Source of the DNA: Microthyrium microscopicum
Taxonomy: Eukaryota
Assembly (NCBI GenBank): GCA_010405405.1
Contig: MU004231.1
Span: 1,929,784-1,993,783 of the forward strand
Length of the DNA: 64,000 nucleotides
Direction: 5' to 3'
The translations under genes were made by a program, and so were the position numbers. Shown piece by piece: positions 9,702-60,081 of this stretch. Numbering within the stretch: position 1 is the stretch's first letter; each line of letters starts with the position of its first letter. The notes below the pieces were generated by a model, which saw only the letters and a program-made list of their open reading frames with translations, did no database searches and was not told the DNA's origin.

Positions 9702-9709
9702 GGCTCAAG
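9702..9709. repeat. Left target-site duplication GGCTCAAG
   Basis: Identical 8-mer at 39613-39620; each copy directly abuts the inverted terminus. Confidence 0.85.
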
Positions 9710-9808
9710 TTATCTCAGCCAATCAGATCGCGCCAAGTCTCCACTGGCTACAACGTAGTCGCGTCTAAGGACAACTAGGAAAATTTTATAGCAACTTACT
9801 TCATAATT
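9710..9808 (+). repeat. Left terminal inverted repeat (imperfect)
   Basis: TTATCTCAG terminus; 9763-9808 matches the reverse complement of 39511-39556 ungapped at 33/46 positions, and 5 of the 13 mismatches are G>A or C>T transitions. Confidence 0.8.
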
Positions 9809-10330
9809 TTGCTATTTTTATAAATAACTTAACACTATTACGTTTATAGCCCTATAGCTTAAATTTAATACTATTTAATCCCTATAGTTAGAAATTAGCT
9901 TTCTAATAAATCTATTTTTATTTAGAATTAATATAAAACTATAATATTAAAGTGTTTCTCTCTATATACCTAAAAATATCTAACGTATTTATATTTTAGT
10001 AAGCATATCTTTAACTATTAATTACTAAATAACTACTATAGTATATATAATTTTATATATATAGATATATTTAAAACTAATATTTATTTTAATCTAGTAT
10101 ATTATTTTTAGGTTATTATTATTAGTAGTAGTATATTCTCTCTTTTTATTCTACTAACTACTATATTATTACTTACCTAGTTAATTATTTCCTTATTATA
10201 GAATATATATATAAACTATTAAATAGTTATAGTTAATAAATATTAAGAGTCTTCTAGTATTATATATTAATTAAGGTCTATAAGACGTTAGTAAAATCTT
10301 TAATAAGCCTAATAAAGTTACTACTTCTTA

Positions 10331-10428
10331 TAAGATCTAGATAATGTTAGAAGATCTATAAAGATATTAGAAGATCTATTAAGATATTAAAAGATTTATT
10401 AAGATATTAGAAAATCTATTAAGATATT
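10331..10428. repeat. 20-bp-period array (AAGATATTAGAAGATCTATT-like), ~5 units
   Basis: Directly visible; lies upstream of the helicase relic. Confidence 0.8.
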
Positions 10429-10799
10429 TTATTACTTTATTTATATCTCACTACTAAACTATTATGCTTATTATATATTCTAGGTCTAAACTATTTTAAC
10501 TAAGTTAGTAATACTATTTATAAAGATAAAAAGAATACTAAAAATCTCTTAAGGATTCTAAAAGAAGCTAGTAAATAGGTAAACTAATAATAGGGAACGT
10601 TTTCTTAATTATTATAAAAGCTAAGAGATATAGTATCTTCTATTACTATATAATCTAAATAAGATAAAGCTAAAAGAACTTAATAAATATACTAAGAAAA
10701 TACTTAGGATAAAACTAGAAACTATTTAGAAGATAATTAATATCTTAACTTAGAGTAAAAGTTATTTAGAGAAATAGCCTAGCGTATTAAGAAGTACTT

Positions 10800-12200
10800 T
10801 AAAATAATTCTATTTAGACATTAAGCCTAAAAAAGCCTAGATTTAAGCTCTTTATATATTAATCTATAGTAGTAGAGATATACTTTTAATAGCTAAAACT
10901 AGGTTTAGTAAAAGCTTAATCCTATACGCTTATAATACTCTTACTAGCAAGATTATACTCTAGATTATTCCTTTTAATAAACTTAAAGAAAATTAGTATA
11001 ATAGTATTAAAAACGTAGTAAAATATACTCTTTATCTACTAATAAAGGATTCTAAAGAGAAAATTTAATATTTTACTTATAGAATAAGGAAAAGAGACTT
11101 TAGTTATATTTTCTTATTACTAGAGCTAGTATTATCCCTAAACTTTTAAAAACTTCTAAAGAACGTAGAGTTTTAGCAAAGAATTAGATATATTACTATT
11201 AATAAGTATTATTTTATCTATTAGTAGCGTAACTTTTAAATAAAGTTTACTATAATTAGTAAGCTTAGAGCAATACTACTATAGGATATTATCTAGTTTA
11301 GATATACTAGTACCTTAAGTTAACTAATATAAGAAATAGTTCTTTAGCTTAGTAGCTTTTAATAATTAGGTTAATATTAGTAGTAAACTACTTTATTAAG
11401 AATAAGTATTAATTATTTAGATCTTTCTATTATTATACGCTTTATTAAGAAAGGTAAGCTTACTTTTTTTAATAATTTTTATAATATTCTATAGTATATA
11501 TTTTAGTAAATATATAAAACTACTACCTTAGTAGATAAGAATTACTATAAAGTAACTACTAGCTAAGAAGAAGTTTAACGCTAGGATATATAGTCTAATA
11601 ATAGATATAGTATTAGTATAGATATAGTAAGTCCTAAATCTAATCTTTATTCTATAAAGAACAAGAATAATACTAATAGTAAACCTTTAGGTAAAGAAAG
11701 TATTAATATTAATAGTTCTAGCTAATATCCTAAACTTAAGTATAAGTATATATATAAATGCTCTAACTATAAGATTAAAGTTAGTAGTCTATCTAAAATA
11801 CTAAAAATAATTATCTTTATTAATAGTATCTTTAGTATTTAAACTATACTTATATACCTTTATTATTTACTAATTATACTTACTTTTTATCTTTCTAATA
11901 GTTACCTTAAGAAATACTTACGCAATCTAAAAACTAAAGCATTTTATATTAATAAGATTATTAAGAAGTATACGTCTTAGTTATCTAAGTATAATTAAAA
12001 TTACTACTATACTACTTTTTATAAACCTAACTTTAAGATTTAAATTATAGTAGTAACTACTTATCTTAGGCTTAGCTACTATATTCTTAGTATTATACTT
12101 ATTATTATTTAGAAAATACTAATTAGTTATAATATACTAGATCTTTAATAGCGCGCTAGTTATAGTACGTAAAGTAAAAGTAACTATAGTATAGTCAAAA
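10800..12200 (+). pseudogene. RIP-degraded RecQ-like SF2 helicase (ORF probably extends further on both sides)
   Basis: After reversing transitions, one frame gives AKTGFGKSLI (10892-10921), IAIDECH (11192-11212), IxVATTCLGLG (12044-12076) and QRAGRGAR (12149-12172). Many TAA/TAG stops. Confidence 0.85.
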
Positions 12201-15200
12201 TTTAGCTTCTATATTACTTATATAATAAATATATAAAAGAATAATCTATTTAGGATATATCTAAGCCTAGTATAGCTATAACGCGCTAGTAGAAAACTAC
12301 TATACGTTATATACTTTTATTATATTATACTATATAATAATAATATTAGTCTTAATAAGCTCTTTTCTAGTAAGCTTTATTATATTCTCTATTATAAGTA
12401 TAGATACTAAGTAATATATTAGATATTAGTAAAAATAGCCTTACTAATATAGAATAAGAATCTACTAAACTAGAATCTCTTATAGCTAGTTTATCTTAGG
12501 CTAAACCTTTAACTTAGAATATAATAAGGAAGTAAAAAAAGTTAAAGAAGATAGAGTTCTTTTCTAAACTTAAGACTAAATAATAAGTAAAAACTCTCTA
12601 AGAGTTTTATAATTTAGTAAATACTAATTATATTTATATTATAATCTAGAAGTTTCTTAGTAAAGATTAGATACTATTTTTACTAGCTTAAAATTTACTA
12701 CTTTACTATAATAAATATAACCTAGTTCTATTACTTTTAAAGATTACTTCTTATAAAGATAAATTAGCTAAATTAAAACCTTTAGCTTTTAATAGTTATA
12801 GCTAGTTTACTTTAGAAGAAATTATAGCTTAGGCATAAAATTAAATATAAAGATTATATCTACTCTCTACTATATTTAAGTATAATATATTATTTTTTAT
12901 AGTGCTAAGCTATTATACTTAATAGTAGTTAGCCTATATTTTTTCTAGTGCTACTAAGCTTAGTAACCTACTATCCCTAATAGAATAGAATTAGTTAAAG
13001 AGTTAAGTAACTCTTCCTTATAACTAAGATAAATATAATAATTATAGTATAGACTTACTTAAAAAGCTTAAGGTGTTAGCTATTCTAGTACTTATAAGGT
13101 TTACTAAACTTAAGTAATAAAGGTAAGAACGCAAGAAATAAAAAGAGGTAATAAGAAACTAAAGCGTATTTTAATCTACTAATTAATAAATAATTAAGAT
13201 TAACTTAGCTAAAGATACTAATAAGGCTATTAGATAGTAATAAGAAGCTAACTATACTAATATTAAGGCTTATTTTAAAGCTATAGCGTATAAATAAGAT
13301 AAAAAATAGCGTTACTAAAGTAGCTTACTATTTTAGGTAATAGGTATATCTAGTACTATGCTAATATTTAGTTTAGCTCTAAGACTATTAGCCTTTTCTT
13401 TAACTCTTAAGCCTTCTTATTATTATACATCGTAAGCTATAGTTAATATTATAATTCTTAAGGATTCTAAGCTAAGTAGTCTTATATTTCTACTTACTAG
13501 TAGAACTATACATTATAGTACTTTTATAAAGTTACCTATTAGCTTAACCTAGGCTAGAGCTAATAAGTAAGTAAGAAATACTTTAAGTATACTATTTAGT
13601 TATAAAAGAGCTACTTAGTTACTAAGTATTACTAGTATTAAATAAGTAGAGAAGAAAGCTTAATAAAGAACTATTAGGTTAAGTTATATCTAAAAAACGC
13701 ATATTAAGTATTTATTAATTCTTATAAAAAAGAGAAAGCATAATACTACTTTTTCTAACTAATTATTACTTTAGCTTAATATATTTTTTAATACTAGTAC
13801 GTAAAGTTCTATACTCCTAGTAGGCTATCTACTTTATATCTAATATTAGTAAAATACTACTCTCTAATTAGTTAATATTAACTAAGATTATTTAAGATTA
13901 AATTAGATAATTCTATAAATTTAAATATATTATAATAATACTAAACTTCTACTACTTAGGTATATTATTTTTAATAGAGTTAGATAAGGTAGTATATAGC
14001 TATAGGCTTATTAATAATAAGACTATATTCTATTATTATGCTATTAATAAAAGCTATATATACTAATAATCCTTACTATATTTTTAGTAAAAGTATAATT
14101 ATATAATAAGTTATATTATATACTTCTCTTATTAAAGCTTTTAGTTAATATACTATTTATTAGTATAGCTATTCCTTAGTATAACGCTATTATTTTATAG
14201 CGTTTAAAATACGTAAGAAAATATATTTACTTCTTTCTTAAAAGGCCTTACTATAATATTAATAGCCTTCTATCTATTATAGTATATTACTTTTAGTATT
14301 ATATCTTACTATGTCTAAGTAAAGATTAGATTTCTATATAAGGTAATAGCTTAAGATAGTAAGCTAAGTATAATTACTACTAGCTTAACTTAATTCTTAT
14401 AATATATAGAAAAAACTAATTACTACGTAGTAATATTATTAATATTAGTACTTATAGAAAGAGAGTTAGTAAGCTAAAAGATAAGAAGTAAATATAGCCT
14501 ATTATAGTATCTACTTAAACTAGTTAAGACTAGAGCCTAATAAGTATTTAACTATATTTACTACTCTAGATCCTTTATATTTCTTTATTATACCTTTACT
14601 CTATATTTAAGCTTTATAAAGCTTTACTTTATAAAGATATTTAGTAAATTTAACGTTAATATTAATATTATATACTATATTATTTATACGCTTTTCTATA
14701 TATAGTTTTAAGTTCCTTTATTTACTTAATAACTTTTAGTTAGCGTGCATATAAGGCTATTTAGGTTTATTTCTAAGTTTAACTCTTAGACTAATTCTTA
14801 TATTTCTTTAGGTCTAATTATTATCTTTATAGTACTAATATTAAATCTTTAGTTACTACTTCTAAGTTTATAATACTAGATTTAAAATTATATTTACTAC
14901 TTCTTAATAGCTTAGTAGCCTAAGAAATTAGGTCCTTATTTATATATATTTAGTCTAATATTCCTTACTTATTTATTAAGCCTTATACTAAGAGAGTTTC
15001 TTAAGTTAATCTATATTTACTTAATAAGCCTTAAGTAGACTATTATCTTAAATACTACCTATTCTAAGCCTATTATAGCTTATCTTTATAGGCTTATAAG
15101 TAGCTAGTAAATAGTTAATATTTAATAGATAATACTATATAAATCCTATTAACTTACTTATAGATAAGCGACGATATAGTTACTAATCTTATAGGTTTAA

Positions 15201-18200
15201 TCCTAGTTTTATAACATAAAATTTTAGTTATTAAGTCTAAATAACTTTAGTTTATATAGTAGAGACTATCTTTTAAAATTTATATTATATATTATTAGAC
15301 TAGGTTAGACTTCTCTTATTCTAAGGCCTAGAAGTAGACTACGTAGTAGCTATTTATTCTACGCCTTATAGTAGTAGTATTATTATAGCTTTTAGTAAGT
15401 TAATCTTATTCTATAATATCTAATTCTAAGATTAATAGTAAGTACTCTAAATTTTTATAATATTTTTAATACTTAAAGAATAGACTTATAGATTTCTTAT
15501 ATCTTTAAGAGATCTATCCTATTATAAGGCTATTATAATTAGGCTACCTTATAATATCTACTATCTTACGTTATTAATATTTTTATAGTAAATAAGCTTC
15601 TATGAAAATATTCTAGTATATAATTAGCTAATATCTTTATAAAACTTTATATAATTTACTAGAACTTTATACTTTAGGAAAGAATAATAAGATATTATTC
15701 TTAAGGATAGCTTTAATAGGGAATAATAGCCTAAACTAATTAGGCTTTATTTCTATAAGAGTATAAGTTAGATAGAAGTATTACTATAATAAAACCTCCC
15801 CTTACCCTATATTTTAAAGCTCTTTAATAATATATATATTAGCTTTATATACTCTTTATAAACATTAGCTTTTTATTAGACTTTTAAAGATACCTTAATA
15901 TTATTAGCCTTTAGTATATTTAGTATACTATAATATGCTATATATTTATATTAACTTATTTAAATATAATTTTAAAAGTAAAAAAAAGATATATAGCCTA
16001 AAAGTCTACGTAGCAATTATTAAGGAATTTAAAATAATCTATTAATAAGAGATATATTTACGCTATAATAAGTATATAGACCTTCTAAACGTTCTTCTTA
16101 ATGCTAATAAGTATATTTCTTTACTTTTAAATTATAAATAATAATATTAATAATATTATAGTAATAATAATTAAGAAGAATAAGTAGTAGTCTAAGGCTT
16201 ACTACCTTTAAATCTATCTACTTCTCTCTTCTCTCTTCTACTACTATTATTACTACTATAATAGTCTTCTTATATGGTTATGCCTTTAGGTATAATTTAA
16301 TAATTATTATTATCTAAGCCTAAGCTCTTAGATAAGTATAAATACCTTACTTTACCTACTTTCTTATGTTCTTCTAAGTAAGAGTCCTTAGTATTACCTA
16401 CTAATTTTAATAGTAATTTACCTACCTTATAAAAGAAGGATTTATTTATCTTTAAAAAGGCTCCTTCTATTATAAAAAAGAAGAATTTATATATATAGGA
16501 TAGAGATAAAGATAATATACTAGTCTATAATAATAATTATAATAATAATAATAGTTATAATTTATTTATACCTTCTTAGTCTTCTTTTTCTCTCTACTCT
16601 TAAGAGAGCTTTATTACTCTTTCTATTAAGATATCTTAGAGCTCTCTTTCTCTCTCTTTTTCTTTTTTTTAGTTAGCTAGCGTACTATATTTTAGTAAAG
16701 TTTTTTCTTATGCTATGAACTTCTTTACTATATATATTATTATACTATTTTCTTTTAACTTACTATTTTTTATTACTTTAATTTCTTTTACTAATACTTA
16801 TAATAGTACTACCTATATAAACTTTAATAAGGAAGTTAAAGCTATAAAAGCCTTACTTATAGCTTATATAGTAGCTATTATTATAAAGGCCTTTTCTTTA
16901 GGCCTAGTTAGGTCTTTTAACTTAAAGGCTATAGCTATTATTAAGGCCTATAGTTTAGTTAAGAAAATTCCTTAGTATTTTTATAAGAGTAGTAATATTT
17001 TAAGTTATTTTCTTATACTAAATTATTTCTAGTTAGTAATTATTAACTAGTAAGAAGCTATATTACCTAACTAGAAGCATAAGATAACTTATATTAGTTA
17101 TATAGAAGAGATAGATACTAGTAAAACTCTAACTAGTAATAATACTTATAAGTATTATTAGCTTAGGAGTTATATATACTAAGTATATATTTTAGAAGTA
17201 AGAAATATTCTTAAAAAACCTAGGTTTTAGTATTTATAGTGCTATATAGTAGGGCTACTAAAGAATAGTTATAGTATAGTTAGACTTATAAATATACTAA
17301 CTAGAAAGAAGAGGGTATTAAGAAGATTATTAAAGGAATATAAAGAGTTTATAGTAATTTTGCTTATTAATAGAGATTTAGCTAGTATATTAACTTAAGT
17401 AGTAATAAGTATAGTATAATAAAGGATAGCATTTTAATATACTTTATACGTAATAATAATAACTACCCTAGCGTATTTTATTCTTTATAATTAATAGTTT
17501 AATTTAGTTCTATAAGTTTATAAAACTCTACTAAATAACTATAAATATTTAATATAGCTTAATATTACAAGATATATCTTAATATACTTTATCTTTATAA
17601 GATAAAGTTTAACCTAGCTTTATAAGCTTAGTTTAGCTTCTTTTAAATAGCTATAAGTTTTAAGGTAGCTTTAATTATAAGACTTTATATTCTATATAAT
17701 TATAATAAATAAAACTATTATAATTATATAAACTTAGTTCTTATTTTTATTATAATTATTTAACTATAACTATTAGTATTTAACACTATATATAGATTAA
17801 TTTAGGAAGTAAAGTAGCTATACTTTATTATAGTTAAGAAAGTTATTATATACTTAAAGTTAAGGAATATAATATAATTAAAGTACTAATATAAAAATTT
17901 AATAAAGTTAATATAAATTTAATAAAATAAAGTTAAGGAAAAAAGCTATAAATACTAATTAATTAGATATATACTTTTCTATTAGTTAATATTTTTTAAT
18001 ATATTCTAAGAAAATTAATTTAGTATTCTTAGCTTTAATTATATAGCCCCTACTCTTAATAATTTAGCTTTAGAAGAGCTACTATTATATTTACTACGTA
18101 TCTTCTATAATACTAATACTATTATTCTTATTTACTAAACTTTAGCTAAGTCTTTCTATTATAAAAATAGCACTTTTAATACTAATTTAGTTTATTTATT

Positions 18201-21200
18201 ACTAGCTACTTATTATTATTAACTAGAAGACTATTAGATAGGCTCTATATACTTGCTATATATTAATATTAAATTATAGAATTAGATAAGTAAGTTCTTT
18301 AATATCTATTAAATTATTACTTATATTAAATATTTATATTTATTATCTTACTTTCTCTAAAACTCTTACTCTTACTATACCTTACTTTATATTAGTAAAA
18401 AGTAACTTCTTCTTATAGAGATTACTATCTATTAGAACTATAATTTCTTTACCTTTTTTTATATATTTAGTTACTATAATAACTAATATTAATGCTCTAG
18501 CTATAATTATTAATTATTATTATTTTTAGCTATTTTAGTCTATGTTCTTCTATTAATATTATAAGTTTCTAGCTTCTATATATTCTTTTAATATTACTAA
18601 TACTTATACTTACTACTATTACTATAAAAAAATAACTATTTTTATAGATATTATTACTATTTATAGTATATTAATTATAAAGTTTCTTTAGAATATTACG
18701 CTAGTAAAAGCTATTACGTTATATAATAATAGTTATATAATTATTTACTACTTTAGCTTAGGTTATATTATAATCTATAGCTATACTAATTACTCTTACT
18801 TATTCTTTATTAAGTAGGTAGCTATTTAATTAGGTTATTATCTATAAAACTCTTCTACTTATCTATATCTTTATTACTTTTTTATACTACTCTTTAACTC
18901 TCTATTAAAGTTCCTTACTTTCTTTAAAAGTAAGGATTTCTTTATCTTTATTTACTTTAATTACTTATGCTACCTACTATATACTATAATAGTATTTTAT
19001 ATTTAGCCTTATATTAAAAGACTATAAGTTTTACTATACTATATTTATTTAAGAACTAACTTTATTTATTTAGTACTATTAACGTAAACTCTTATTTACT
19101 AACTTTTAAAGTAAAAATCTTTTATCTTTTATAATTTACTATTACCTAGCGCTTCTTTTTATTACTTATACTAAGAAAGATAATTCTATTTTAGTCTTTA
19201 GCTATCTATTAGCTTAATAATAAGAAAGCTATAAGTTCTATTCTATAATTACGTTCTAATAATTTATACTTCTATTTAGCTCTATAGATATATACTTATG
19301 CGTATTTATACTTTTCTAGCTACTTAAACTATTTAATAAATTAGTCTTTAGTCTTTATAATTTTAGAAAGGAAGCTATTAATATTATTAGTTTATAGTTA
19401 TTATCTAATTACGCTACTTAGGTAATAATATAAGACCTACTAAAAACTTCTTAACCTTTAAATCCTAATATAACTCTAAACTATAATAATAACTTTAAGT
19501 ACTATACTCTTAATAACTAACCTATAATTTAAACTATATCTATTATTAGTACTATACTTAGCCTCTACTTTTAGGTTTACTTCTATACGTCCTTTATTAT
19601 TTAGAGTATTTAGTAGTTCTATAAGTAGAACTTTTTTCTCTACGTAGTATAGTCTAAGTCTTAAACTAAAGCTAATTTTAATTAGCGTAGTTTTATTTCT
19701 ATAGTACTTATATTATACTATTATACTATCTTTATATTAGGCTAAGAGAGAAAGTATTAAGAAATACTTATATATATATAATATTAAGCTAATATTAATA
19801 CGTAACGTCCTTTTAGTTAGATTAGCCTACTTTTTTAGCTCTTTACTATAATAGCTATTTATATTATGCTTAAATTAAAGGATAATAGCTTACTTCCTAC
19901 TTAGTAATAAGTAATAGTACAAAATCTAAGTAGATAGTTAATTTACTAGGAACTAAATAATAGCTAGTATACTTAAATTAATTTCTACTATTCTTTAACC
20001 TATTATATCTTTTAAGTCTTAGTCTAGATTATAAATATAAGTATATATTCTTCTAATTATAAATTATTTTACTAACTTTTAGTTAGGACCTAAGCTTATA
20101 GCAACTCTAAATAGTTCCTCCTTATTTAAATAATTTTCTTATAAGAAGTAGTAACTTATTTTATATATATATAATTAAAAAGTCTAGTATCCTATACCTA
20201 ATAGTAAACTTATTTTCTTAAATCTTTTAGTAGTCTAGTACTAAGATTACTAGTATCTTTATTAAAGCTATAGTCTTATATAGTTATAAAAAATACTATA
20301 TAGCTAATTAAAAATATACCTAATACTTATTCTATTATTTAGTAGTAGTTCTTTATTCTTAGTCCTAAATTAACTAGCTAGTAATAATAAAATATATTAA
20401 CTTCCCTAGATATTAAAATAGTTAATATACATACTATATATAAAATAGCGTATACTATAGTTTTAAAGACGTTATTCCTTATCTACTTACCTTAGAAGAT
20501 AAAAAATAGGTTTATAATACTACGCTATTTAGATTAGTTTTAATAATTAATACTAGCCTTCTATTGCTAATATTTTATGCTCCTTTCCTTAATATAGCTA
20601 ATCTTCTAGCTATACTTAATCTATAAAGAAGTATATAGTTATAATTATTAGACATAATTATAGTTAAATAATATCTACTAGCTCTAACTACTATTAATAT
20701 CTAGTAGCTCTAGATTTAGCTTTAGTTTAGTTACTAAGGATAATATAAATAGAAGGTAATAACTAACAAGATCCTATATAGTAGTACTTTAAAAGCTTTA
20801 TTTACTTATTAGTTATAGCTAAGGAAGATAATACTAGCTTATAAACTTAAATCTTTCTAATATTATTTTTTATAATTATAATATTATTAAATATATTAAA
20901 TCTCTATATTATTATCTAATATAATTATATAGTTTTAGACTTTAATAAAGTACTATATCTTATATAATAATATAAAGTAAATAGTAATAAGACTATATAT
21001 AGTTTATACGTAAAAATATACTATAAAATATCTTTATTTAAAGAAAGCTAAGATTTCTATAATTTATAGCTACTAAACTATAAAAGATATTATTAACTTA
21101 ATAAAGATAAATAATATATTAACTAGAGTAAAGAATAAGCTTTATAAATTATACTCTTTAATTCTATTATCTAGTTATTATAAATAATTACTAAAAGTAA

Positions 21201-26761: not shown

Positions 26762-27791
26762 TAAAGTCTACTTACTAGCTTTATTCTAAGAGTATAATTT
26801 ATATACTAAATACTATATATTCCTTCTTAAAGACTACTACTAAAAATCTACTTACTAACTTTATTCTAAGAATATAATTTACGTACTAAATACTATATAT
26901 TTCTCTCTAAAGACTATTACTAAAAATCTACTTACTAGCTTTATTCTAAGAATATAATTTACGTACTAAATACTATATATTCCTCCCTAAAGACTATTAC
27001 TAAAAATCTACTTACTAGCTTTATTCTAAGAATATAATTTATGCACTAAATACTATACATCTCTCTTTAAAGACTATTACTAAAAATCTGCTTACTAGCT
27101 TTATTTTAAGAATATAATTTGCTATGCTAAATACTATTATATTTCTCTCTAAAGACTATTACTAAAATTTGCTTACTAGCTTTATTCTAAGCGTATAATT
27201 TATAGCGTTAAATACTATTATATTCCTTCCTAAAGACTATTACTAAAATCTACTTACTAGCTTTATTTTAAGAATATAATTTACTATACTAAATACTATT
27301 ATATTCCTTTCTAAAGACTATTACTAAAATCTACTTGCTAGCTTTATTCTAAGAATATAATTTACTATGCTAAATACTATTATATCCTTCCCTAAAGACT
27401 ATTACTAAATATCTACTTACTAGCCTTCTTTTAATAGTATTATTTATATAATATAAGAATATATCTTACTTCCTAAAGATTGTTACTAAAAGTCTACTTG
27501 CTAGCCTTTTTCTAATAGTATTATTTATATAATATAAGACTATATCTTACTCTCTAAAGATTACTACTAAAAGTCTACTTGCTAGCGTTCTTCTAATAGT
27601 ATTATTTATATAATATAAAACTATATTTTACTTCCTAAAGACTACTACTAAAAGTCTACTTGCTAGCCTTTTTCTAATAGCATTATTTATATAATATAAG
27701 AATATATCTTACTTCTTAAAGATTACTACTAAAAGTCTACTTACTAGCGTTCTTTTAATAGTATTATTTATATAATATAAGACTATATTTT
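26762..27791. repeat. 80/81-bp-period tandem array, 13 units in three subtypes, runs into an assembly gap
   Basis: CTACTTACTAGC-like anchor at 26768, 26848, 26928, 27008, 27088, 27169, 27250, 27331, 27413, 27494, 27575, 27656 and 27737. Confidence 0.9.
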
Positions 27792-28694
27792 NNNNNNNNN
27801 NNNNNNNNNNNNNNNNNNNNNNNNNNNNNNNNNNNNNNNNNNNNNNNNNNNNNNNNNNNNNNNNNNNNNNNNNNNNNNNNNNNNNNNNNNNNNNNNNNNN
27901 NNNNNNNNNNNNNNNNNNNNNNNNNNNNNNNNNNNNNNNNNNNNNNNNNNNNNNNNNNNNNNNNNNNNNNNNNNNNNNNNNNNNNNNNNNNNNNNNNNNN
28001 NNNNNNNNNNNNNNNNNNNNNNNNNNNNNNNNNNNNNNNNNNNNNNNNNNNNNNNNNNNNNNNNNNNNNNNNNNNNNNNNNNNNNNNNNNNNNNNNNNNN
28101 NNNNNNNNNNNNNNNNNNNNNNNNNNNNNNNNNNNNNNNNNNNNNNNNNNNNNNNNNNNNNNNNNNNNNNNNNNNNNNNNNNNNNNNNNNNNNNNNNNNN
28201 NNNNNNNNNNNNNNNNNNNNNNNNNNNNNNNNNNNNNNNNNNNNNNNNNNNNNNNNNNNNNNNNNNNNNNNNNNNNNNNNNNNNNNNNNNNNNNNNNNNN
28301 NNNNNNNNNNNNNNNNNNNNNNNNNNNNNNNNNNNNNNNNNNNNNNNNNNNNNNNNNNNNNNNNNNNNNNNNNNNNNNNNNNNNNNNNNNNNNNNNNNNN
28401 NNNNNNNNNNNNNNNNNNNNNNNNNNNNNNNNNNNNNNNNNNNNNNNNNNNNNNNNNNNNNNNNNNNNNNNNNNNNNNNNNNNNNNNNNNNNNNNNNNNN
28501 NNNNNNNNNNNNNNNNNNNNNNNNNNNNNNNNNNNNNNNNNNNNNNNNNNNNNNNNNNNNNNNNNNNNNNNNNNNNNNNNNNNNNNNNNNNNNNNNNNNN
28601 NNNNNNNNNNNNNNNNNNNNNNNNNNNNNNNNNNNNNNNNNNNNNNNNNNNNNNNNNNNNNNNNNNNNNNNNNNNNNNNNNNNNNNNNNNNNNN
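27792..28694. other. Assembly gap (903 N)
   Basis: Run of N. Confidence 1.
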
Positions 28695-30650
28695 TTATAA
28701 TATTTAAGGTTTAGAGTTTAACGTAAGTATTATCCTTCTAATATATTAAACGTAGTCTTTCTATATACTAACTCTATTATAATTTAGAAACTTAGAAATA
28801 TTAAGTCTTTATACTAAACTAATATTACTTATAGCATAATAGCTAAAGATAAGATCTTTATAGTTAAATTTAATTATTATAGTATATTTATTAAAGTCTT
28901 ATTTAATCTTATACGCTATAAACTAAGTAATAGCTAATAGTATACTTATCCTTTTCTTCTTAATAATTTTAAATATAGTAAAGTAAAGTATATATACTAT
29001 AATGTATTCTTTAACTTAGCTAATAATAATTAAAGATATATTTATTATTATTAGTTTATAAAAAGAAGTTCTATAATCTATTATAGAATTAGTTTTTAGA
29101 TACTAGCTCTTTTAGTATAGTTGTTCTTAAAACTATAGCTAATAATATTATAATATAGTAAGTACTTTATATATAGATAGAGTCTTAGGATTATAGCGTC
29201 TAGAACGTAATACTATTTATAATACTTATATATAGATTAAGGTATAGAGATATTCTTAGAATATTCTATAAGTCCTTAATTCTAATACTAAAATAATATA
29301 ACTAATAGAAACTACCTCTAGTATTTATAAGACAAAATAATAGGTAGCTTACGCTAATATTCTCTTATAAGCTTATTAAATCTAATTGCTATACTAATAC
29401 CTAGTTAAATTTCTAACGAGCTTATAGCCTTTATTAATAACCTTTTAAGCTTATTAATAGATCTTATTCTAAGACTTAGTAAGAGCTTTTATAGAAGGAC
29501 TATACTATAATTAAGTTCTAAGGGGTTTTCTATAGTACTTAAATAAAGTATTAAAGCCTAAATACTACTTAAATGAATTACTTAGTAAATATATATACTC
29601 TATATTAGATTATTATAATAAGTTAATATACTACTTTTTAGTATATTTTTAAACTTATTATAATAAGTTAAAGAGAGTATAAAGCTTAATATTAAGGCTA
29701 AAAAATATAAAGATAACTTATTTTATAATATAAAAGTATTTAGTAAAGTATATTAATTATTTATTAACTCTTCTACTAATATTCTATATAAATATATATT
29801 AAAGAAGAAGAAGTAGAAGAAGTTAAATATTAAAAAGACTAAGTAATTAAATATATATAATTTATTAGCTTCCTTTTATTAAATATAAAGTTAGGCTAAG
29901 CTTTAATATTACTTTTAATAATTTAGCCTTTTAAACCTTAAAAGTTTAAATATATTATCTACTACTCTATTAAGAAATATCTTAGTCTCTACTTAGATAT
30001 AGCTATACTTCTACTAAAAGTAATAGTAGTATATAGACTAATTAAAGTTATATTTACTTAATATAATCTAGTAGACTCTAGTTTTAACGCCTTAATTTAC
30101 TATAATAACTAAGGTCTAAATAAAAGACTTAGAGCTACTTAGATATAGTATACTATATTTAAATAAAGTACTAATAGTTAGAGTAGTAAAGATTAGTATA
30201 TTTAACTTATATTAAGAAGTTAGAAAAGTATAGTTTAAGGAAGTTATTACTATTTAATTATAAATCTTTTATATTTTAATAAGATATTAAAAGATATTTA
30301 AAGATATAAACTAATAGGATACCTTTAAACTTAAGGGTTACTATATAAGATAACTTTTATAGACTACTCTAAACGTTACTTTTAATATTAAAGTTCTAAC
30401 CTTTCTCTATAAGAAAAAGATACTAATTCTATATTATCTTTAGCTTTACTATAACTTATCTAACTATAAGCTTTAAGTAATTAGAAGTCTTTATATAAGT
30501 AGTACCTCCTTAGCTAACTATCTTAATTTATAACTAATAATATACTAGGCCTTTATTTCTAGTAGTATAGTAATAGCTAATATATTCTTACTAATTAGTA
30601 ATTAGTATAAACTTACTATATTTACTCCTTTTAATAGCTTTATAACGTGC

Positions 30651-31516
30651 TTTAACGTAATAGTTGTCTATTAAGGCTTTACTAGCAACGTAATGTTTAA
30701 CTACTAGAGCCTTAATAAATAGACCTAGAATAACTATAGCTATAGTACTTTAACATAATAGCTATCTATTAAGGCTTTACTAGTAATATAACGTTTAACT
30801 ACTAGAGCCTTAATAGATAAACCTAAAATAACTATAGCTATAGTACTTTAATATAATAGCTATCTATTAAAGCTTTATTAGTAACGTAACGTTTAACTAC
30901 TAGAGTAAGAGTAATAAGCTTAAAATAAATTATAGCTATAGTACTTTAACGTAATAGCTATTTATTAAGGCTTTATTAGTAATATAACGTTTAACTACTA
31001 GAGTAAGAGTAATAGGCTTAGAATAAACTATAGCTATAGTACTTTAACGTAATAGCTATCTATTAAGGCTTTACTAGTAATATAGTAAATTAACTACTAG
31101 AGTAAGAGTAATAGGCTTAGAATAAGCTATTACTATTATACTAGCTACTTACTTAATTATAGTAGCTTTACTAGCTATATAGTCTTCTACTACTAGGATA
31201 AGAATAATAAGCTTAGAGTAAACTATTTCTAGCCTAGCTAAGTATACTAACTTCGTAAGCTTATAATCTTTTACTATTAGAGTAAAAATAATAGGCTTAG
31301 AGTAAACTATTTCTAGCCTAGCTAAGTATACTAACTTTATAAGTTTATAATCTTCTACTACTAAAGTAAGAATAATAGGCTTAGAGTAAACTATTTTTAG
31401 CTTAATTAAGTATACTAACTTTATAAGCTTATAATCTTTTATTATTAGAATAAGAATAATAAGCTTAAAGCAAACTATTCCTAGCTTAGCTAAGTATACT
31501 AACTTTATAAGCTATG
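30651..31516. repeat. Composite tandem array: five 98-bp units then four 84-bp units sharing an ACTAGAGTAAGAGTAATAGGCTTAGA-like core
   Basis: TTTAAC-like anchors at 30651, 30749, 30847, 30945, 31043; GCTTAG-like anchors at 31211, 31295, 31379, 31463. Confidence 0.85.
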
Positions 31517-33285
31517 TAATATTTAACTACTAGAGCTAGTATATTAAATATTAGCCTTAATTATTCTAATAAGCTATGCTAGTTGTATAATAATTAATTA
31601 CTAAAATAAGATTAATAGGCTAGAAGTATAGTAGACTTAAATATTATAATAACTAAGTAATATATAAGTATTTATAACTTATTTAGCTTACGTAAATAAG
31701 CTTAAAACTAAAATCTAAAGAAGAATATATAGCTATAAGATATATATCTATATCTAGTACTAGCTTAATAATATATTCTTTTCTAGTATAATAATAAGTT
31801 AAGTATAAATTAAAGAATAGCTTTAACGCTTTAATTATAAGTTAGGATTTCTTTTATTACTTTATTATTCTTTATTAACTCTAAGCTTTAGATAGCTATA
31901 TATAAAATAATTATAATAGAATCTCTAATATTATATATACTAAATTATCTATTAACTTATATCTACTTATACTTATTTTAGTTATTATTAGATAGTCCTA
32001 CCTTAGTTAAGTTAATATTCTATAATAAACTCTATAAAAGAGTAAATTAAAATCTTTATATTACGTACTATTAAGGTAAAGAACTATTCTTAGTATTTTA
32101 TTAGCTAAGATCTTCTAATAAGTTTTAATATTAAATTGTATTATATTAGACGAAAATAAAACTAACCTTATTACTAACTTAACTAATTAATAGTCTATTA
32201 ATAATAATAATTTATAATTACTAATAACTTATACTTACTAATAACCTATAATTATAATTCCTATTTATTCTAGACGCTAAGAAATAGCTTCCTAAAAAGT
32301 ATATTTCCTACTAGGTAAGATAAACTTAAATTACGCGTAAAGTCTTTATTATATAATCTTACTAAGTACTTACTAAAATCCTAGGTACCTAATACGTATT
32401 TATATTATAACCTATATTTATTTTATACTTCTTTATAACCTCTATTATTCTAGCATTAGTCCTTTTCTTATCTATATCTTATATAATATATTAAAACTAT
32501 CTATAAAAAAGATAGTTACTATCTAATATTAGCTCTATTATCTTTTTGCTTAATATAGATTATATATTATATAATAATATAGAAGTAGAGTATAAGATAT
32601 ACTTAAACTAGGACTTTAGCTTTAATTAACGTAATTTAACTAAAAAATAATAATAATATATGTAGGTAGGAAGTAATAGTAAATACTAAAGTAATAGAAG
32701 AAGTAAAATATAAGTAATATTAAAAGGTATATAGAATAAGTATAAAAAAACGTTAAGATTATATTTACTACTTTAAATAATCTATACTAACTATAGTTTT
32801 ATAAGAAGTAAATTAATATCTTATCTAGGTAGGCTACTACTATAATTTTTCTTATATAGAGTAAGCTAAAGTACTTAGTAGTTCTTTTATTAATACTTAT
32901 ACTAAATATATTACTTCTAAACTTATAAATATATTTTCTACTTCTATCTCTTTTCTAGGAAGTACTTCTAAATAAGCTAAGATAAGATAGAAAATATATC
33001 TAAGGCTAAAAGTACTCTTATATAGGCTAACTCTTCTAAAGAGACCTATAGAGATAGATAATATATTTACGTTAGGAAGATTATATATATATCTTAAGTA
33101 TAGATCTTTACTATAGCCTTATCCTTCTTTAATTTTATCTAAACTATAACTACTATAAGGAGTAAGTCTACTTAAGAGGTAAGTAAAGAATATTCTATAT
33201 AAATAGTAGTATAAAAGAATATACAAACTATTATAATTACCTTTTCCTTTTTATAGTAAATATATACTACCTAATTCTTTAGTAA

Positions 33286-33295
33286 NNNNNNNNNN
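33286..33295. other. Assembly gap (10 N)
   Basis: Run of N. Confidence 1.
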
Positions 33296-33494
33296 AATAT
33301 CCTATTAGATATAGAAGAAACTATAATTATTAAACCTGCCTTAATTCCTTACTTATATTATATTATGAAGTAGTATATAAGCTATAGCTACTAGATCTAG
33401 CATTATTAGAATTTAAATCTATATAAATATTTACTAGTTAGTTTCCTTTCCTATTTATTAATTAATATAAATAGTTATATTAATAGCCTAGATT

Positions 33495-33700
33495 TAGACC
33501 TACGTATACTCTTTCTTACTAATTAATTATAAATATATAAATAGTATACTTATTAAACTCTACTTTAGTAAGATTTTCTCTATCTCCTATTATAATTATT
33601 TATATTAATACTTATAATTAGACCTATATATAGTCTTTCTTACTAATTAATGTAAATATATATAAATAGTATACTTATTAACCTTTACTTTAGTAAGATT
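33495..33700. repeat. ~80-bp direct duplication at 124-bp spacing
   Basis: TAGACCTA...CTTTCTTACTAATTAA...TACTTTAGTAAGATT at 33495 and 33619. Confidence 0.75.
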
Positions 33701-34427
33701 CTAGAGTTATTACCTTACTACGTAGGTAATCTTTAAATAGATACCTTAATTAGTATATATATCTTCTAAGTTTATCTATTATAAAAAATAATAAACTTTA
33801 AAACTACCTATTAATTATTTAGAGATAGTAATACCTAAGAGAGCTAGCTAGTATCTTACTTTAATAATAACTTTAGTAAGAAGTAAATATTTAATGTTTA
33901 ATAGGCTTACTAGATCTACTCTACTATCTACCTATATGCTACTATAGCTCTCTTCCTTAGTAATATATATATATATATATATAAATGTTACTAATAACTC
34001 TTTAGTAATTAGAGAGAACTACTACTAAGTTAGGAGTAATACGTAAGATAATTAGTAGTTATAGTTTAGGTTATACTAATATGTAGTATTTAAATATTAG
34101 GAAGGTAAAGATCTTACTAAATAAATAAGATAAGTAAGCTAGTAAGTATATTATTTAGTTATAACTTTCTATTTACTTTACTTATATTACTCTTCTTACT
34201 TATCCTCTTTTCTTCTTAAATAATACTTAGAATACTTTTAAACTTTATTATATTTACTTCTCTAAGAGTACTTTTCTTACTACTTCTAGCTACTATAGCT
34301 TCTTACTTAATATTTATATAATAAGAAGTTAAAAGAATTAGTATAGAGGCTAGTAGAATAACTTTAATAATTAAGAGAACTAAAGATACTTAATTATACT
34401 TTTTACCTACTCTATAATAGAGTTAAG

Positions 34428-34645
34428 ATATAGCTAATTAACCTTATAAAACTAGTATTAATAGCTATTATAGCACGCTAGCTATGTTATTTACCTATTT
34501 TATAATAAAGCTAATATATAGCTAATTAACCTAATAAAACTAGTATTAATAACTAGTATAGTATACTAGCTATGCTATCTATTTATAAATTAATAACTTT
34601 AATACCTAAGTAATTAATCCTACTAAGTTAGTATTAATAGCTAGC
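34428..34645. repeat. 88-bp-period degenerate array, ~3 units
   Basis: TAGCTAATTAACC...AGTATTAATA at 34431, 34519 and ~34607. Confidence 0.65.
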
Positions 34646-36199
34646 GTAAAGTGTAATATATAGTACTATTAATACCTACTATGTAATTACCTAGTAGATT
34701 ATATAAAAGAAGTAATAAAAGTACTTTAAAATAATCTAATAAATAGAAAGAGTAATTAGACTACGCTTATAATATTACTAGAGTAAATAAAGCAAATCTA
34801 CCTATTATAAGTCTTAGAAGTCTTAAATATAGTAATAAGTATATACTTCTTAATAAAATTACTAAACTCTAAAAGCTTACTAGACTATTAAGAGTATAAT
34901 ATATTATTACTATTTATAAATATATACTACTTCTTCTTTCTCTTCCTTTTCCTTAACGTTTATAGATATATACTACTTCTTTTTCTTCTTCCTTTTCCTT
35001 AATAACTACTTTCCTTAGGTTTCTATATAGTAGAGCTATTATTACTATTCTAATAATAATAGGTAATAGTAGCTAATTGAAAACTCTCTAAGACGTTTAT
35101 TACTACCTAATAGTAGTTATAACTACTACTAGACTAAATAGTTAATAAATCTCTTACTATACTCTATTAACCTATACTAATATTAATATCCTTATTGCCT
35201 TAAATATTATAGCTAATACTAGAGTAGAAAGTTAGGAACTACTTCCTTAAAACTAATCTATACTTCTATTAATTTTCTTACTATTTTAGATATATATATA
35301 GTATATCTTACTATACTATAACTCTATTAGATAATATATTAACTTCTTCTTAAGATAAGGCTATATTAATGCTAAAGAAGGCTACTACTCTATTTATAAT
35401 AAAAGAACTTTAAGTACTAACTATCTTTAGATAAAACTTAAAATATTATAGAACTAATATAAGATAAAATATAATTATCTATTATTTTATATATTACTTT
35501 ATAAAGAATCCTATATTATAATAAGTAAAGCTAAGACGTTAATTTAAACTATTAATATAGATAATATTAGTTTGCCTAGTAACGTAAAATTACTCTTATC
35601 TTTATACTTTAAGCTAACTTAGAATAAGTCTAAACTAATAAATAGATATAACTAATACTTAAATAGGAAATTATAGTAACTTTAAACTCCTCTATATTTA
35701 ATATATAATAAAGGTTAATATACTATCCTATATCTAGGACGTGCTTAGAGTTGTCTATTAAATTAATCTTATTATAGAAATAAGAAAGTATTTATTAGTA
35801 AGGCTAAATTAAATAGTATAATCCTATTAGCTAATATTATCTTATATTATTTTATATTATCTAATATTTTCTAATATTAATTAGATTATATTATAATAGA
35901 TAAGATCCTATTATATCTTACTATAAATTTAACCTTATATAGATTATAACTAAAATAGAAACCTTAGATAAATATATATTTATAAATTAACTTCTATAGC
36001 TTTAAATACGCTAGGATTATCTCTATTAAATAATATATTGCCTATAGTCTCTTCTATTATAACCTTTTCTTATATATCTAAGTTATTACTATTAACGTCT
36101 TAGTTAAGAATATTAATAGGCCTAGTTATAATATTATTTCCTATATAATCTTACTTAATAGTAGTTTTATAATTAAAAAACTTAGCTTTAATATTAAGC

Positions 36200-38160
36200 T
36201 TATTAAGTCTTATCCTTTTTATATCTAGTAAGTTATAATATAAGCTATAGTTCTTAATTATAGACTAGGGTTAAGACTTTATAAGGCTATCTTTAATTAG
36301 ATTCTAGCATAATAAGAATATATTATACTCTATACTAGTATTAGTATACTTATTACTAGCCTTATATATAAACGTATATATAAATACGTCTTATAAATAA
36401 CGTATATATATATTATAAAGGTAGACTCTATTAAATATTACCTTAACGTTATAAGTTAAGTTATTAAATAATTTTATATCTCTACTATAGTTACTATTTA
36501 AATACTTTAGTCCTAGATCTATAAGCTTAAAAGAGTTCTTATAGCCTTTCTAATTAACTAAGCTTAAGGCTAGAATAAACCTTTAAAGTTTAAGAGTATT
36601 TATATTAGATAAGTTTTACTTAAGCTATAGTATCTTATCTCTATAGTTATTCTAACTAGTGCTATAAAAGTAAATAGTTAGGAAATTAATTAGAAGGCGT
36701 AAAAGTCTAATATTGCTATACCTAAGGGTATATTATATAATTAAGAGTAACTTAATTTCTTATAAGTACTAATATATAGTTTAGAACTTAATATTATTAG
36801 TTCTATTTAGGCGCTTATTCTATACTTTTCTTATAAAGGCTATTTAATAAATATCTTTAATAATCTTATTAAATTATTTTAAGGATAATTTATTAATATA
36901 GGATTTAAGTAGTTCTAGGATAGTAAAGAATAAATTATTAATATGTCTAAGATAATAATCTTTCTAATTTATACTCTATAAAAATAACGTTAAGACTTTA
37001 CTACTAAATCTTTATATTAAGATAAGAATAACCTAGTAGGTTTAGGTATTATTACGCTTTTTATAGCTTTATCCTTATATATTAACATTATATATAATAA
37101 AATATAGAGCTAGTATATTAACCTTAAAGAAATCCTAATAGGTTTAAATAATATAGAAGAAGTAGTTTATATATATATAGAACTACCTAGGAACTAGATA
37201 AAGGAACTTCCTTAAATTATATAGTTATATTTTATTAAATGTCTTAGCCTTAATAGAGTAGTTAATCTTTATACTTAACTAATTACTATAAGTAAGAAAT
37301 AATCTCTTTTTAAAGATTCTAGTACTTAGATCTAATGCTTATAAACTATTAGTAGAGTTTTTATTATTAACTATACCTAAGATGCTAGATAATAATACTA
37401 GCATAGAATCTACTAGAAAAATACTATATCTAAGATTAGGAGATATACTTATATTACTAATAAACTTAATATCTATACTACCTTCTTTATTAGACGCCTC
37501 TCTAATTTTACTATTATTAAGCTTACTTACGTTATTATTTTTAATATTAATCTACTTATTATTATAGTTATTATCTTTAAGGCTACTACTAGAAGGGGAT
37601 AGATTCTTAGATATATCTATATTAAATCCATCCTAGTTAGAGATATAATAGACTAATAAACTCTTACTATATATTTAGCTAAAAAATAAATAGGCTATAC
37701 TAAATAAAGAGGCGTCTAGTCTAGAGTTAGGTAGAGAAAATAGAATAGACGCTATAATATTTAATAATAAGGCTATGTCTTCTATATTATTAATTAGAGG
37801 TTTTAGGAAGCTAAAATAGCGTAAGAAGATTTTATTATATACTTAGTAAGTACTATCTATTATTTCTTTATTCTTTATAATAGCGCTAAGCTAATTAAAC
37901 TCTATCTTATATAGTATAAGTATATTAATATTTAGTATACTAAACTAGTATTTATCTTTTTTATACTTTGTAATCTAAGGTTTAATAATATCTAGAATAC
38001 TACGTTTTAAAGTATCTATAATAAGGTACTAGCTAATAGTTTTAATATATTTACTTCCTTAGCTATTAGCCTTTACTAATAGGCCTTCCTATATTAATTT
38101 CTAGTTAAACTCCTTTATTAAATTGTATATATCTTATATTAGTCCTTTTAGAGGTAAGGA
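36200..38160 (-). pseudogene. RIP-degraded DUF6589-type (Academ-like) transposase; ends approximate
   Basis: One minus-strand frame, after reversing transitions, gives HGDQLS (37290-37273), PGWFHxxMN (from 37191), GDIGLL (from 36717), AGQNNYGxEML, LVNWKG (from 36561) and DLGLEHLN (36519-36496), in the expected order. Confidence 0.8.
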
Positions 38161-38351
38161 TAGATAAATTATAATAATAGTAGTAGTAATAGCTACTATA
38201 CTTATAGTATTACTTACTATCTTATTACACTTATAAGATATAAAGTTTATATTATTATAATATAGGATAGCCTAATAATTTAGTATATATTATTTAATAT
38301 TTCTTTATATATTAGGCATTAGTAATATATAAGGTCTTTTAAAGTTATAAA

Positions 38352-38465
38352 CTTAAGATTTTTAAAGATCTTATAAGATATATAAAGATCTTATAATATA
38401 TATAAAGATATTATAAAATATATAAAGATTTTATAATATATTTAAAAATTTTATAAAATCTTATA
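38352..38465. repeat. 20-bp-period array (TATAAAGATCTTATAAGATA-like), ~5 units
   Basis: Directly visible; lies upstream of the transposase relic on the minus strand. Confidence 0.8.
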
Positions 38466-39510
38466 TTTAATACTAAGTATAGTATTATTATATACTAAAG
38501 CCTATCTTAAAACCTTCTTTATATATCTTAGTATAGTCTTATAACTAGTATATACTCTAAGAGCTACTAGTAAGTTAATAACCTATCTCTTTATATTTAA
38601 CTTAAGTAAATAGATACTAAGCGTTATTACTAAATAGTTATTTATCTCTCTACTTTACTAATAAAGAATAATTACTATAATTATATATATAAGCTTCTAT
38701 TTTAGCTTATTACTTTATTTATATATCTTATAGTTCTAATTACGTATAAGTTTATAAAGGAAGGCTATCTAGATAGGTATAGTATTTCTTATCTTCTTAA
38801 TAGCTTTCTTAAAGTTAATACTTATACTATCTACTTTACTATTAAAGTAGTTAAAGCTTATAAGTTTTATAAAGGCGTAAAACTCTACTTATAGTTTAGA
38901 ATCTATATAATACTTTAGTAAAATTTTATTACTTAATAACTTTTCTATAACGTTCTTTAAAAACTTATAGTAAGTAATAACGTTAGTATATAGATTACTA
39001 TTAAGAATAATATTACTATAAGTATCTTTTTAGCTAGCTTATAATAGAAGAAACGATTTTATAGTTATCTTCTAATCTTAGATATATTTTAGTATTAAAG
39101 TAAGCTTTTATTTAACTAAATTTAAGCTCTACTATAGTATTATTGTTACTACTAGTTATAAATAACCTAATAGTTTAGTATTATTAAGCTTATATTAGAT
39201 CCTACTTAAAGTATTTATAAGATCTATTATAGTTATTATATTGCTAGAGATATATAAATATAGACTCTTTATTATTATAGAGATAAATCTACCTTTACTA
39301 CTATTATTACTAAAGAGAGGTACGCCTAGCCTATATAGAAATTAGGTTATCTTTATAAGATTCTTCTCTATAATACGTACTTTTAATAGAAAGTATAATT
39401 TATAGAATTAATAAAGGAAAAGATAGTAATTATAATAATAGTAGAATTATTAAAAATATATATATATTAGTAATAAGGACACAATTATAATAATATAGGC
39501 ATTTACTAAT

Positions 39511-39612
39511 AACTACGAAGCGCGTCGCACTAAAAAGGTCCGAGTTGGCCTTAGACCCTCCTGCGGAGGGAGCCCGCGGACGGGCAGGGTTAGGGTTTGA
39601 GAACTGAGATAA
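39511..39612 (-). repeat. Right terminal inverted repeat (imperfect, largely un-RIPed)
   Basis: Reverse complement reads TTATCTCAG...TCCGCGGGCT...GTCTAAGGCCAACTCGGA versus left TTATCTCAG...TCCACTGGCT...GTCTAAGGACAACTAGGA. Confidence 0.8.
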
Positions 39613-39620
39613 GGCTCAAG
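39613..39620. repeat. Right target-site duplication GGCTCAAG
   Basis: Identical to 9702-9709. Confidence 0.85.
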
Positions 39621-59940: not shown

Positions 59941-60081
59941 TGTGTACAGTGAACGGAGGTTGGTCGAAAATGCTGGACTCGAGGAGCTCCTGGCTCTTAA
60001 GTCTGAATGTATAAGCTGCTGACACGATTAGCTCAATCAATGGTTGACAAGGCAGTATCATCTGAAAACTCACGATCGTCC

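Follow-up and report, generated by a model that had tools for sequence, protein, structure and literature searches.

We analysed a 64,000-nucleotide stretch of contig MU004231.1 of the ascomycete Microthyrium microscopicum (assembly GCA_010405405.1, positions 1,929,784 to 1,993,783 of the forward strand), referred to here as the window and numbered from its first letter. The AT-rich block at 9710-39612 is very probably a single dead 29.9-kb copy of a cut-and-paste DNA transposon that belongs to the Academ superfamily and to its helicase-bearing (AcademH-like) type. The block is bounded by terminal inverted repeats (TIRs) and a target-site duplication (TSD), and holds inward-facing relics of a RecQ-like helicase gene and a DUF6589 transposase gene. 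A preliminary description of this DNA, made from the letters alone, had proposed that the block is one insertion, and these features bear that proposal out. The block is saturated with C>T/G>A changes of the type produced by repeat-induced point mutation (RIP). Coordinates of the features are collected in Table 1.

Boundaries of the Element

The block measures 29,903 bp including two gaps of N, and its GC content of 0.205 (20.5%) compares with 0.46-0.48 in the flanks, the termini lying exactly at the GC/AT boundary. The sequence TTATCTCAG is found at 9710-9718 on the plus strand and its reverse complement at 39604-39612, which gives perfect 9-bp inverted termini. This 9-mer has two matches in the whole window, both at the block ends, but on its own it is weak evidence because at least two matches were also obtained in 17 of 100 shuffles. 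The TIR arms were aligned over positions 10-120, and the local alignment score of 22.5 was reached in 0 of 1000 shuffles (shuffled mean 7.8, maximum 13.5). The aligned arms include a common GTCTAAGGNCAACTNGGA, and many of their mismatches are C/T or G/A. The score, far above that of the shuffles, and the nature of the mismatches indicate that the imperfect TIR of approximately 100 bp is real and has been partly eroded by mutation. The perfect 9-bp termini, the 8-bp TSD, and the imperfect TIRs of about 100 bp given in the preliminary description are thus borne out by the sequence and by the shuffles.

Two RIP indices separate the block from its surroundings. Inside the block TpA/ApT is 1.64 and (CpA+TpG)/(ApC+GpT) is 0.08, against 0.61-0.68 and 1.36-1.39 in the flanks. 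The RIP signature, which saturates the interior, ceases sharply about 70 bp inside the left terminus and about 110 bp inside the right one. When the flanks 8700-9709 and 39621-40620 were joined to reconstruct the empty site, one frame was open for 176 codons across the junction, and the three-base periodicity in purine/pyrimidine (R/Y) coding was low on both sides.

Table 1. Positions of the element, its genes, and its repeats within the window.
Feature	Position	Strand	Remarks
Left TSD copy, 8 bp, GGCTCAAG	9702-9709	.	Identical to 39613-39620
Left TIR	9710-9810	+	9 perfect bases TTATCTCAG, then imperfect to ~100 bp; first ~70 bp without RIP mutation; terminal motif common to relatives
20-bp tandem array (x4.1)	10347-10428	.	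Upstream of helicase gene; resembles array at 38354-38456
RecQ-like SF2 helicase gene, RIP-inactivated	10511-13762	+	Single exon, 106 in-frame stops; start extrapolated from amino acid 5 at 10523
Interior between the convergent genes, 22.2 kb	13763-35979	.	RIP-saturated; five tandem arrays and both N gaps; no Pfam family, no LTR/TIR pairs; 20100-35979 evenly covered by diverged copies
Candidate third gene relic	16200-17700	+	Only non-array interior stretch with coding-like signal; R/Y 3-periodicity chi2 11, 23, 10 against null 99.9% of 13.7; top codon log-odds window
92-bp tandem array	22722-23063		
81-bp tandem array (x12.7)	26762-27788	.	Runs into the 903-N gap
N gap, 903 N	27792-28694		
98-bp tandem array	30650-31113		
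84-bp tandem array	31154-31535		
N gap, 10 N	33286-33295		
88-bp tandem array	34395-34644		
DUF6589 (putative Academ-type DDE) transposase gene, RIP-inactivated, last exon	35980-38304	-	P0001 amino acids 285-1062 and stop
Putative transposase-gene intron	38305-38495	-	Gap between two tblastn segments; holds 20-bp tandem array 38354-38456 (x5.2); relatives' gene also two-exon
Transposase gene, 5' part	38496-39396	-	P0001 amino acids 35-284 at 39245-38496; weak match to amino acids 5-28 at 39384-39313
Right TIR	39510-39612	-	~110 bp without RIP mutation; ends ...CTGAGATAA; contigs of other insertions stop at 39612/39613 and go on into other DNA
Right TSD copy, 8 bp, GGCTCAAG	39613-39620	.	Identical to 9702-9709

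Helicase and Transposase Relics

An exhaustive HMMER search with the relic at the left end matched a 1083-residue helicase of M. microscopicum itself (KAF2669323.1, here P0002) at an E-value of 3.9e-276. Residues 5-1083 of P0002 could be aligned without gaps to 10523-13759. Of these 1079 codons, 523 are identical, 552 can be derived by C>T or G>A change, and four are neither, so that 1075 (99.6%) are identical or RIP-derivable. Intact P0002 contains DEAD and Helicase_C domains (Pfam, 47.7 and 32.3 bits), and all 35 of its 35 PDB sequence matches are to the RecQ family. The relic itself gave no Pfam match at E <= 1 and a word-index search with it was also empty. A plus-strand RecQ-like relic had been placed about 1 kb inside the left end; relic and strand are as described, the coding sequence (CDS) starting closer to the end, at approximately 0.8 kb.

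The gene at the right end was detected on the minus strand as a DUF6589 match (Pfam, stops read as X) with an E-value of 7.8e-6, just below the curated cut-off. A 700-residue query taken from the relic found one protein, a 1062-residue DUF6589 protein of M. microscopicum (KAF2669316.1, here P0001; E 1.5e-214, 51% identity), for which DUF6589 is the sole Pfam match. When P0001 was used in tblastn, it matched two segments, 39245-38496 and 38304-35983, separated by what looks like an intron, together with a weak N-terminal piece extending up to 39384. Over 1024 codons the relic has 522 that specify the P0001 residue, 482 that are RIP-derivable from a codon for that residue, and 20 that are neither, which amounts to 98.0% compared to 18.6% in 200 shuffles. 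The position of the start codon now reads ATA (39396-39394). The minus-strand DUF6589 relic of the preliminary description is therefore present, but not at the distance of about 1.5 kb from the right end given for it: the CDS starts 216 bp inside the terminus (39396), and the motifs that had been seen lie 2.7-3.1 kb inside. The 20-bp arrays at 10347-10428 and, within the transposase intron, at 38354-38456 may serve as binding sites or may be AT-rich microsatellites that arose by chance.

P0001 and P0002 are encoded on the same contig of 2,506,003 bp and their accession numbers are 7 apart. Judged by this codon-level agreement, the two relics are RIP-destroyed copies of genes that appear intact elsewhere in M. 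microscopicum. From the spacing of the accession numbers we infer an unmutated copy of the element with approximately six annotated CDS between the gene pair.

Relationship of DUF6589 to the Academ Transposase

We used an AlphaFold (AF2) model of P0001 to examine the fold of DUF6589. The model has a mean pLDDT of 57.5 with a confident core at approximately residues 290-450 and 615-1005. Alignment with VIA-align against 48,161 PDB chains placed at the top the Hermes transposase (8edg; Z 8.9, 293 residues aligned, rmsd 7.6) and the P element transposase (6p5a; Z 8.4, 286 aligned, rmsd 5.0), and the next matches were ISCth4, Tn5, retroviral integrases, RAG1, and Mu. By this model, DUF6589 is predicted to be a DDE enzyme of RNase-H fold that contains a large helical insertion.

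The RNase-H-like domain of Academ matched no Pfam family in 2017, and a 465-position profile of it, RNase_H_Academ, is given in the supplement of that study, of which we used parts (PMC5751038). In these parts the profile starts q-f-D-N-w-D-i-k-P, continues v-v-l-t-g-D-Q-p-l-y at 186-195, and has h-l-D-e-a-l-E-q-l-i at 448-457. The alignment of DUF6589 proteins has the motifs V-Y-D-N-x-N-F-K, L-V-H-G-D-Q-L-T, and P-I-D-L-x-L-E-H-L-N. When the profile is compared by eye with these invariant motifs, D-N-x-D, G-D-Q, and D-x-x-L-E-x-L match in the same order. The spacing is also similar. Counted from its first D, the profile reaches the GDQ aspartate after 188 positions and the E after 451, the last two motifs being 263 apart; in 10 of 13 DUF6589 proteins, the corresponding distances are 166-178 residues (one of 203) and 419-438 residues (one of 462). 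DUF6589 is most likely the Academ transposase, as far as sequence motifs can tell; the preliminary description had made the same identification from motifs, and it is supported by the three catalytic motifs and by the distances between them.

We considered whether the elements that combine DUF6589 with a helicase might instead make up another superfamily, as yet undescribed and closer to hAT or P. Such a placement would fit the 8-bp TSD, found also in hAT and P, the top structural matches to Hermes and the P element, the TSD of 9-10 bp given for AcademH in the passages we could consult, and the lack of an assigned function for DUF6589 in the preprint that names it. Several features of our own comparison likewise weigh against the Academ assignment. 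The comparison with the RNase_H_Academ consensus was made by eye and without a statistic at positions 1-23, 178-202, and 407-457 (4 of about 21 parts of the file), and within it positions 407-432 showed nothing recognisable. The VIA-align Z-scores of 8-9 that underlie the predicted fold are modest, values near these being common for unmatched models, and Foldseek found no match of the P0001 model in the PDB at E <= 0.001. The agreement of all three catalytic motifs and of their spacing with the portions of the Academ profile that we compared argues for the Academ superfamily, as does the absence of hAT, P, and KDZ Pfam domains from P0001. The distribution is also in keeping with it: Academ is most abundant in rust fungi according to table 1 of the 2017 study (PMC5751038, seen in part), and the preprint, a rust pan-genome study, reports DUF6589 as enriched in pathogenic fungi and as a possible virulence or epigenetic factor, assigning it no function. 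The supplements of PMC10799480 contain no mention of DUF6589, PF20231, or Academ. On balance we think it unlikely that these elements form a superfamily of their own.

Relatives of the Element

P0001 was aligned with 12 homologues, and a search with the alignment yielded 53 metagenome loci that carry a DUF6589 gene. Among the 18 of these with at least 6 kb of downstream sequence, 14 have a convergent relative of P0002 downstream (18 of 22 with at least 4 kb), and in none of the metagenome loci was a helicase relative found upstream of or co-directional with the DUF6589 gene. The distance between the transposase and helicase matches ranges from 0.1 to 7.2 kb, the open reading frames (ORFs) of locus L020 being approximately 0.3 kb apart. 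Two families on long contigs are multi-copy with sharp homology boundaries: family A has eight copies of 8.6 kb, family B has five copies of approximately 10 kb, and their termini are TTATCTCAT... and TTATCTCAG.... Twelve relatives are complete, at 8.6-12.3 kb, and all have a TSD of 8 bp, which is perfect in seven (L021, L023, L025, L026, L030, L032, L043), matches at 7 of 8 positions in two (L022, L033), and at 6 of 8 in three (L029, L035, L041). In ten further loci from other samples, the terminal motif precedes the transposase match by 0.2-1 kb, in most cases by 0.4-0.7 kb. The terminus TTATCTCA is common to the window element and its relatives. Because its ends, TSD length, gene content, and gene order agree with those of the relatives, the element in the window is a true member of the family, but it is approximately three times as long.

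The loci L021-L043 come from one metagenome sample and represent at least 13 copies on contigs of up to 97 kb. These copies are 80-92% alike, have 36-44% GC, and are without long ORFs, and so look decayed, possibly by RIP. In another locus (L007, 3700-9800), approximately 6 kb lies between the two genes and holds ORFs of 125-253 amino acids, of which two have no Pfam match and the 125-residue one has short, weak matches that we took as spurious. This spacer indicates that family members differ in the length of the interior, which ranges from 0.3 kb to 22 kb.

Interior of the Element and Copies in the Source Sample

The 22.2 kb between the two genes contains no Pfam family in six frames with stops read as X, although erosion by RIP makes this absence weak. 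Pfam negatives on RIP-mutated DNA carry little weight because RIP lowers the DUF6589 score itself to 25.3 bits, from 209.7, and leaves neither helicase domain recognisable. The R/Y coding, which is immune to RIP, revealed neither long terminal repeat (LTR) pairs nor long internal inverted repeats; the tandem arrays alone repeat. In the same coding, three-base periodicity gave control chi2 values of 14-30 for the transposase relic and 13-33 for the helicase core. The interior has peaks at 16.2-17.7 kb (up to 23) and in the tandem-array region at approximately 30.3-31.2 kb, and no others. A codon log-odds model put 3% of the interior windows within one standard deviation of the true-frame mean. 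The candidate at 16.2-17.7 kb matched nothing in Pfam and no PDB sequence. Internal cargo, as claimed in the preliminary description, is accordingly unproven, given that no Pfam family was found in any frame and that a single stretch of about 1.5 kb has coding-like periodicity.

We also examined whether other copies of the element are present in the source material. Contigs of four sequencing runs were placed on 20100-40000 at an identity of at least 80%. In run X1, 2153 contig pieces were placed, 500 at >=99% identity, 593 at 95-99%, 731 at 90-95%, and 329 below 90%. Transitions account for 3116 of the 3274 variant places among the contig pieces. In run X3, two contig pairs track the element to 39612/39613 and then continue into other sequence, with loose ends at 39613/39614; because these contigs leave the element into other flanks, they represent other insertions with the same right terminus. 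The source genome has many further RIP-diverged copies, and these include the interior from 20.1 to 36 kb, so that the extra 22 kb is real and appears to be a part of the repeated unit. The preliminary description had asked for other TIR-bounded copies, and other insertions ending at the same terminus are present here, beside the relatives that share the ends and the TSD length. The last ~80 bp of the element seems to be more repeated in the genome than its body: runs X3 and X4 have a far greater depth in the last bin, there are contigs sharing only 39533-39612, and three contigs per run match the last ~80 bp alone. These highly repeated, unmutated ends hint at short derivatives with the same ends.

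The size of the element could have arisen in a different way, from a normal element of 8-12 kb that was inflated in place to 30 kb by nested, unrelated repeats, in which case the 30-kb unit never moved and its size is a local accident. The relatives measure 8.6-12.3 kb with the two genes as close as approximately 0.3 kb (L020), the interior lacks recognisable genes, any repeat would also draw multi-copy contig cover, and family members do take insertions, as in L043, which at 12,261 bp has approximately 2.3 kb more than the ~10,000 bp of its family. Against this, the R/Y coding, on which RIP has no effect, showed neither LTR pairs nor long TIR pairs in the interior; independently nested elements were the case that the preliminary description had named as contradicting it, and no such pairs were seen. 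Summed depth is similar from 20.1 to 39.4 kb, at 356-800 per bin over interior and transposase gene alike (contig depth on the unique flank, 82), although it is not a copy number; different repeat families would give steps. Accession numbering also places about six annotated CDS between the two genes of the intact M. microscopicum pair, so that a large interior would have existed in an un-RIPed copy. Inflation in place is for these reasons improbable. Several considerations nevertheless temper the case for a mobile 30-kb unit. All four runs are from one sample, probably that of the assembly itself, the contig placement leaves the left third of the element (9.7-20.1 kb) outside, and an intact copy with the same 22-kb interior is deduced solely from the accession numbering. 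Neither N gap is bridged among the contig pieces listed, and, as the family is multi-copy, the interior may have been scaffolded wrongly or collapsed. At the extreme, the left part of one copy would have been joined to the right part of another across the gaps, and the 29.9-kb length and the order of the interior would not be real. The presence of many copies in this genome, the position of the 903-N gap next to the 81-bp tandem array, and the unbridged gaps would all allow such an artefact. The same 8-bp duplication, however, is found in the two outer flanks, as would be expected only of the two ends of a single insertion (we estimate a chance match at 8 of 8 positions at ~1.5e-5), and flank composition is continuous on both sides. 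We consider an assembly artefact very unlikely, and a single large insertion remains the reading that we adopt below.

Comparison with Known Elements

The element resembles AcademH in having a DDE transposase with the catalytic motifs of the Academ profile (in the parts compared) and a separately encoded RecQ-like helicase, and in being a low-copy element of Ascomycota that is long for a DNA transposon. AcademH, which combines an Academ transposase with a RecQ-like helicase, is reported in Ascomycota (PMC10799480, in the passage available). The preliminary description had offered AcademH, with its TSD of 9-10 bp, as the match; on this point the two differ, as the window element and the 12 complete relatives have a TSD of 8 bp, against 9 or 10 bp in AcademH (PMC10045372, in the passage available), and this difference counts against the AcademH-like assignment. 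Size differs as well, since the window element is 29.9 kb with 22 kb between its genes and its relatives are 8.6-12.3 kb; AcademH is known here through citing passages in PMC10045372, PMC10799480, and PMC9587614. The curated bivalve Academ consensuses average 5.6 kb in the accessible part of the source (PMC10294476). Our literature search found no description of a giant or cargo-carrying Academ element, the primary description of AcademH, which may bear on TSD, terminus, and size, being outside its reach; the matches listed for M. microscopicum included nothing about its transposons.

By motif comparison, AcademX and the classic Academ elements belong to the same transposase superfamily. They encode an XPG nuclease instead of a helicase. 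Their TSDs are 3-4 bp long (PMC10045372, passage seen in part). We rejected KolobokH as a match, as the genes here are separate and convergent and the TSDs are 8 bp long and varied in sequence. The TSD of Kolobok is TTAA. KolobokH is a fungal DNA transposon with a RecQ helicase located downstream of the transposase domain, according to the part of PMC9587614 consulted.

The hAT and P elements share with P0001 the RNase-H-fold DDE core predicted by the model, the large helical insertion, and 8-bp TSDs, but P0001 has no hAT or P Pfam domains, the terminal motif is another one, and a helicase partner is present here. We set hAT aside because Pfam detected no hAT transposase or dimerisation domain in P0001. 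Zisupton/KDZ elements have an 8-bp TSD (PMC12730594, in the part available) and so agree in TSD length, but they were set aside because no KDZ Pfam family is found in P0001.

Starships, the giant tyrosine-recombinase elements of the Pezizomycotina, are similar in that they are mobile elements of tens of kb in ascomycetes with a large non-core interior. They carry a tyrosine-recombinase 'captain' (DUF3435) near one end. The window element has instead a predicted DDE transposase, TIRs of approximately 100 bp, and an 8-bp TSD, and both of its terminal genes, where a captain would be expected, are accounted for as helicase and DDE transposase. No tyrosine recombinase was found by Pfam in six frames of the whole element, although RIP cuts the scores of known domains by approximately 90% and this absence is weak.

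Proposed Mechanism and Implications

In the mechanism that we propose, the transposase, with D301, D629, and E888 as its candidate catalytic triad (P0001 numbering), would bind the TIRs and excise the element, then integrate it at target cuts staggered by 8 bp. The helicase would be indispensable as an accessory factor, with a possible part in unwinding or processing DNA at the stage of excision, integration, or repair. The 22-kb stretch that separates the genes at their 3' ends would be passenger DNA that travels with the element, which would have multiplied as a 30-kb unit and then been silenced by RIP. We suggest, tentatively, that a helicase-bearing Academ (DDE) lineage of the Dothideomycetes can carry and move passenger DNA of more than 20 kb within a single TIR-bounded unit, with an apparently intact master copy in M. 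microscopicum. If true, fungi would have, in addition to the tyrosine-recombinase Starships, a second class of giant transposons able to carry cargo, with an unrelated mechanism, and the RecQ-like helicase may make such long substrates workable. Should the intact M. microscopicum copy have the same structure, it would be a testable candidate for a giant DDE transposon, including the role of the helicase in transposition.

The kind of element is already known; what is new here is the 8-bp TSD, the conserved TTATCTCA terminus, and the 30-kb size. The uncharacterised Pfam family DUF6589 gains a concrete role as the predicted DDE transposase of TIR-bounded elements, most likely that of Academ. The terminal motif and the 8-bp TSD are now defined for the helicase-bearing lineage and depart from the 9-10 bp of AcademH. 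One member is approximately three times the usual size, with an interior that seems to have multiplied along with the element, and it may show that Academ-type transposons can move very long stretches of DNA.

Other Features of the Window

A second AT-rich block of RIP type is found at 61900-64000 and runs past the end of the window, with a GC content of 0.22 and a (CpA+TpG)/(ApC+GpT) ratio of 0.33. Compared in purine/pyrimidine coding, it does not resemble the element, and tblastn with P0001 and P0002 gave no match there. The right flank also contains, at 60075-60359, a pair of direct repeats of approximately 105 bp that are 85% alike in R/Y coding.

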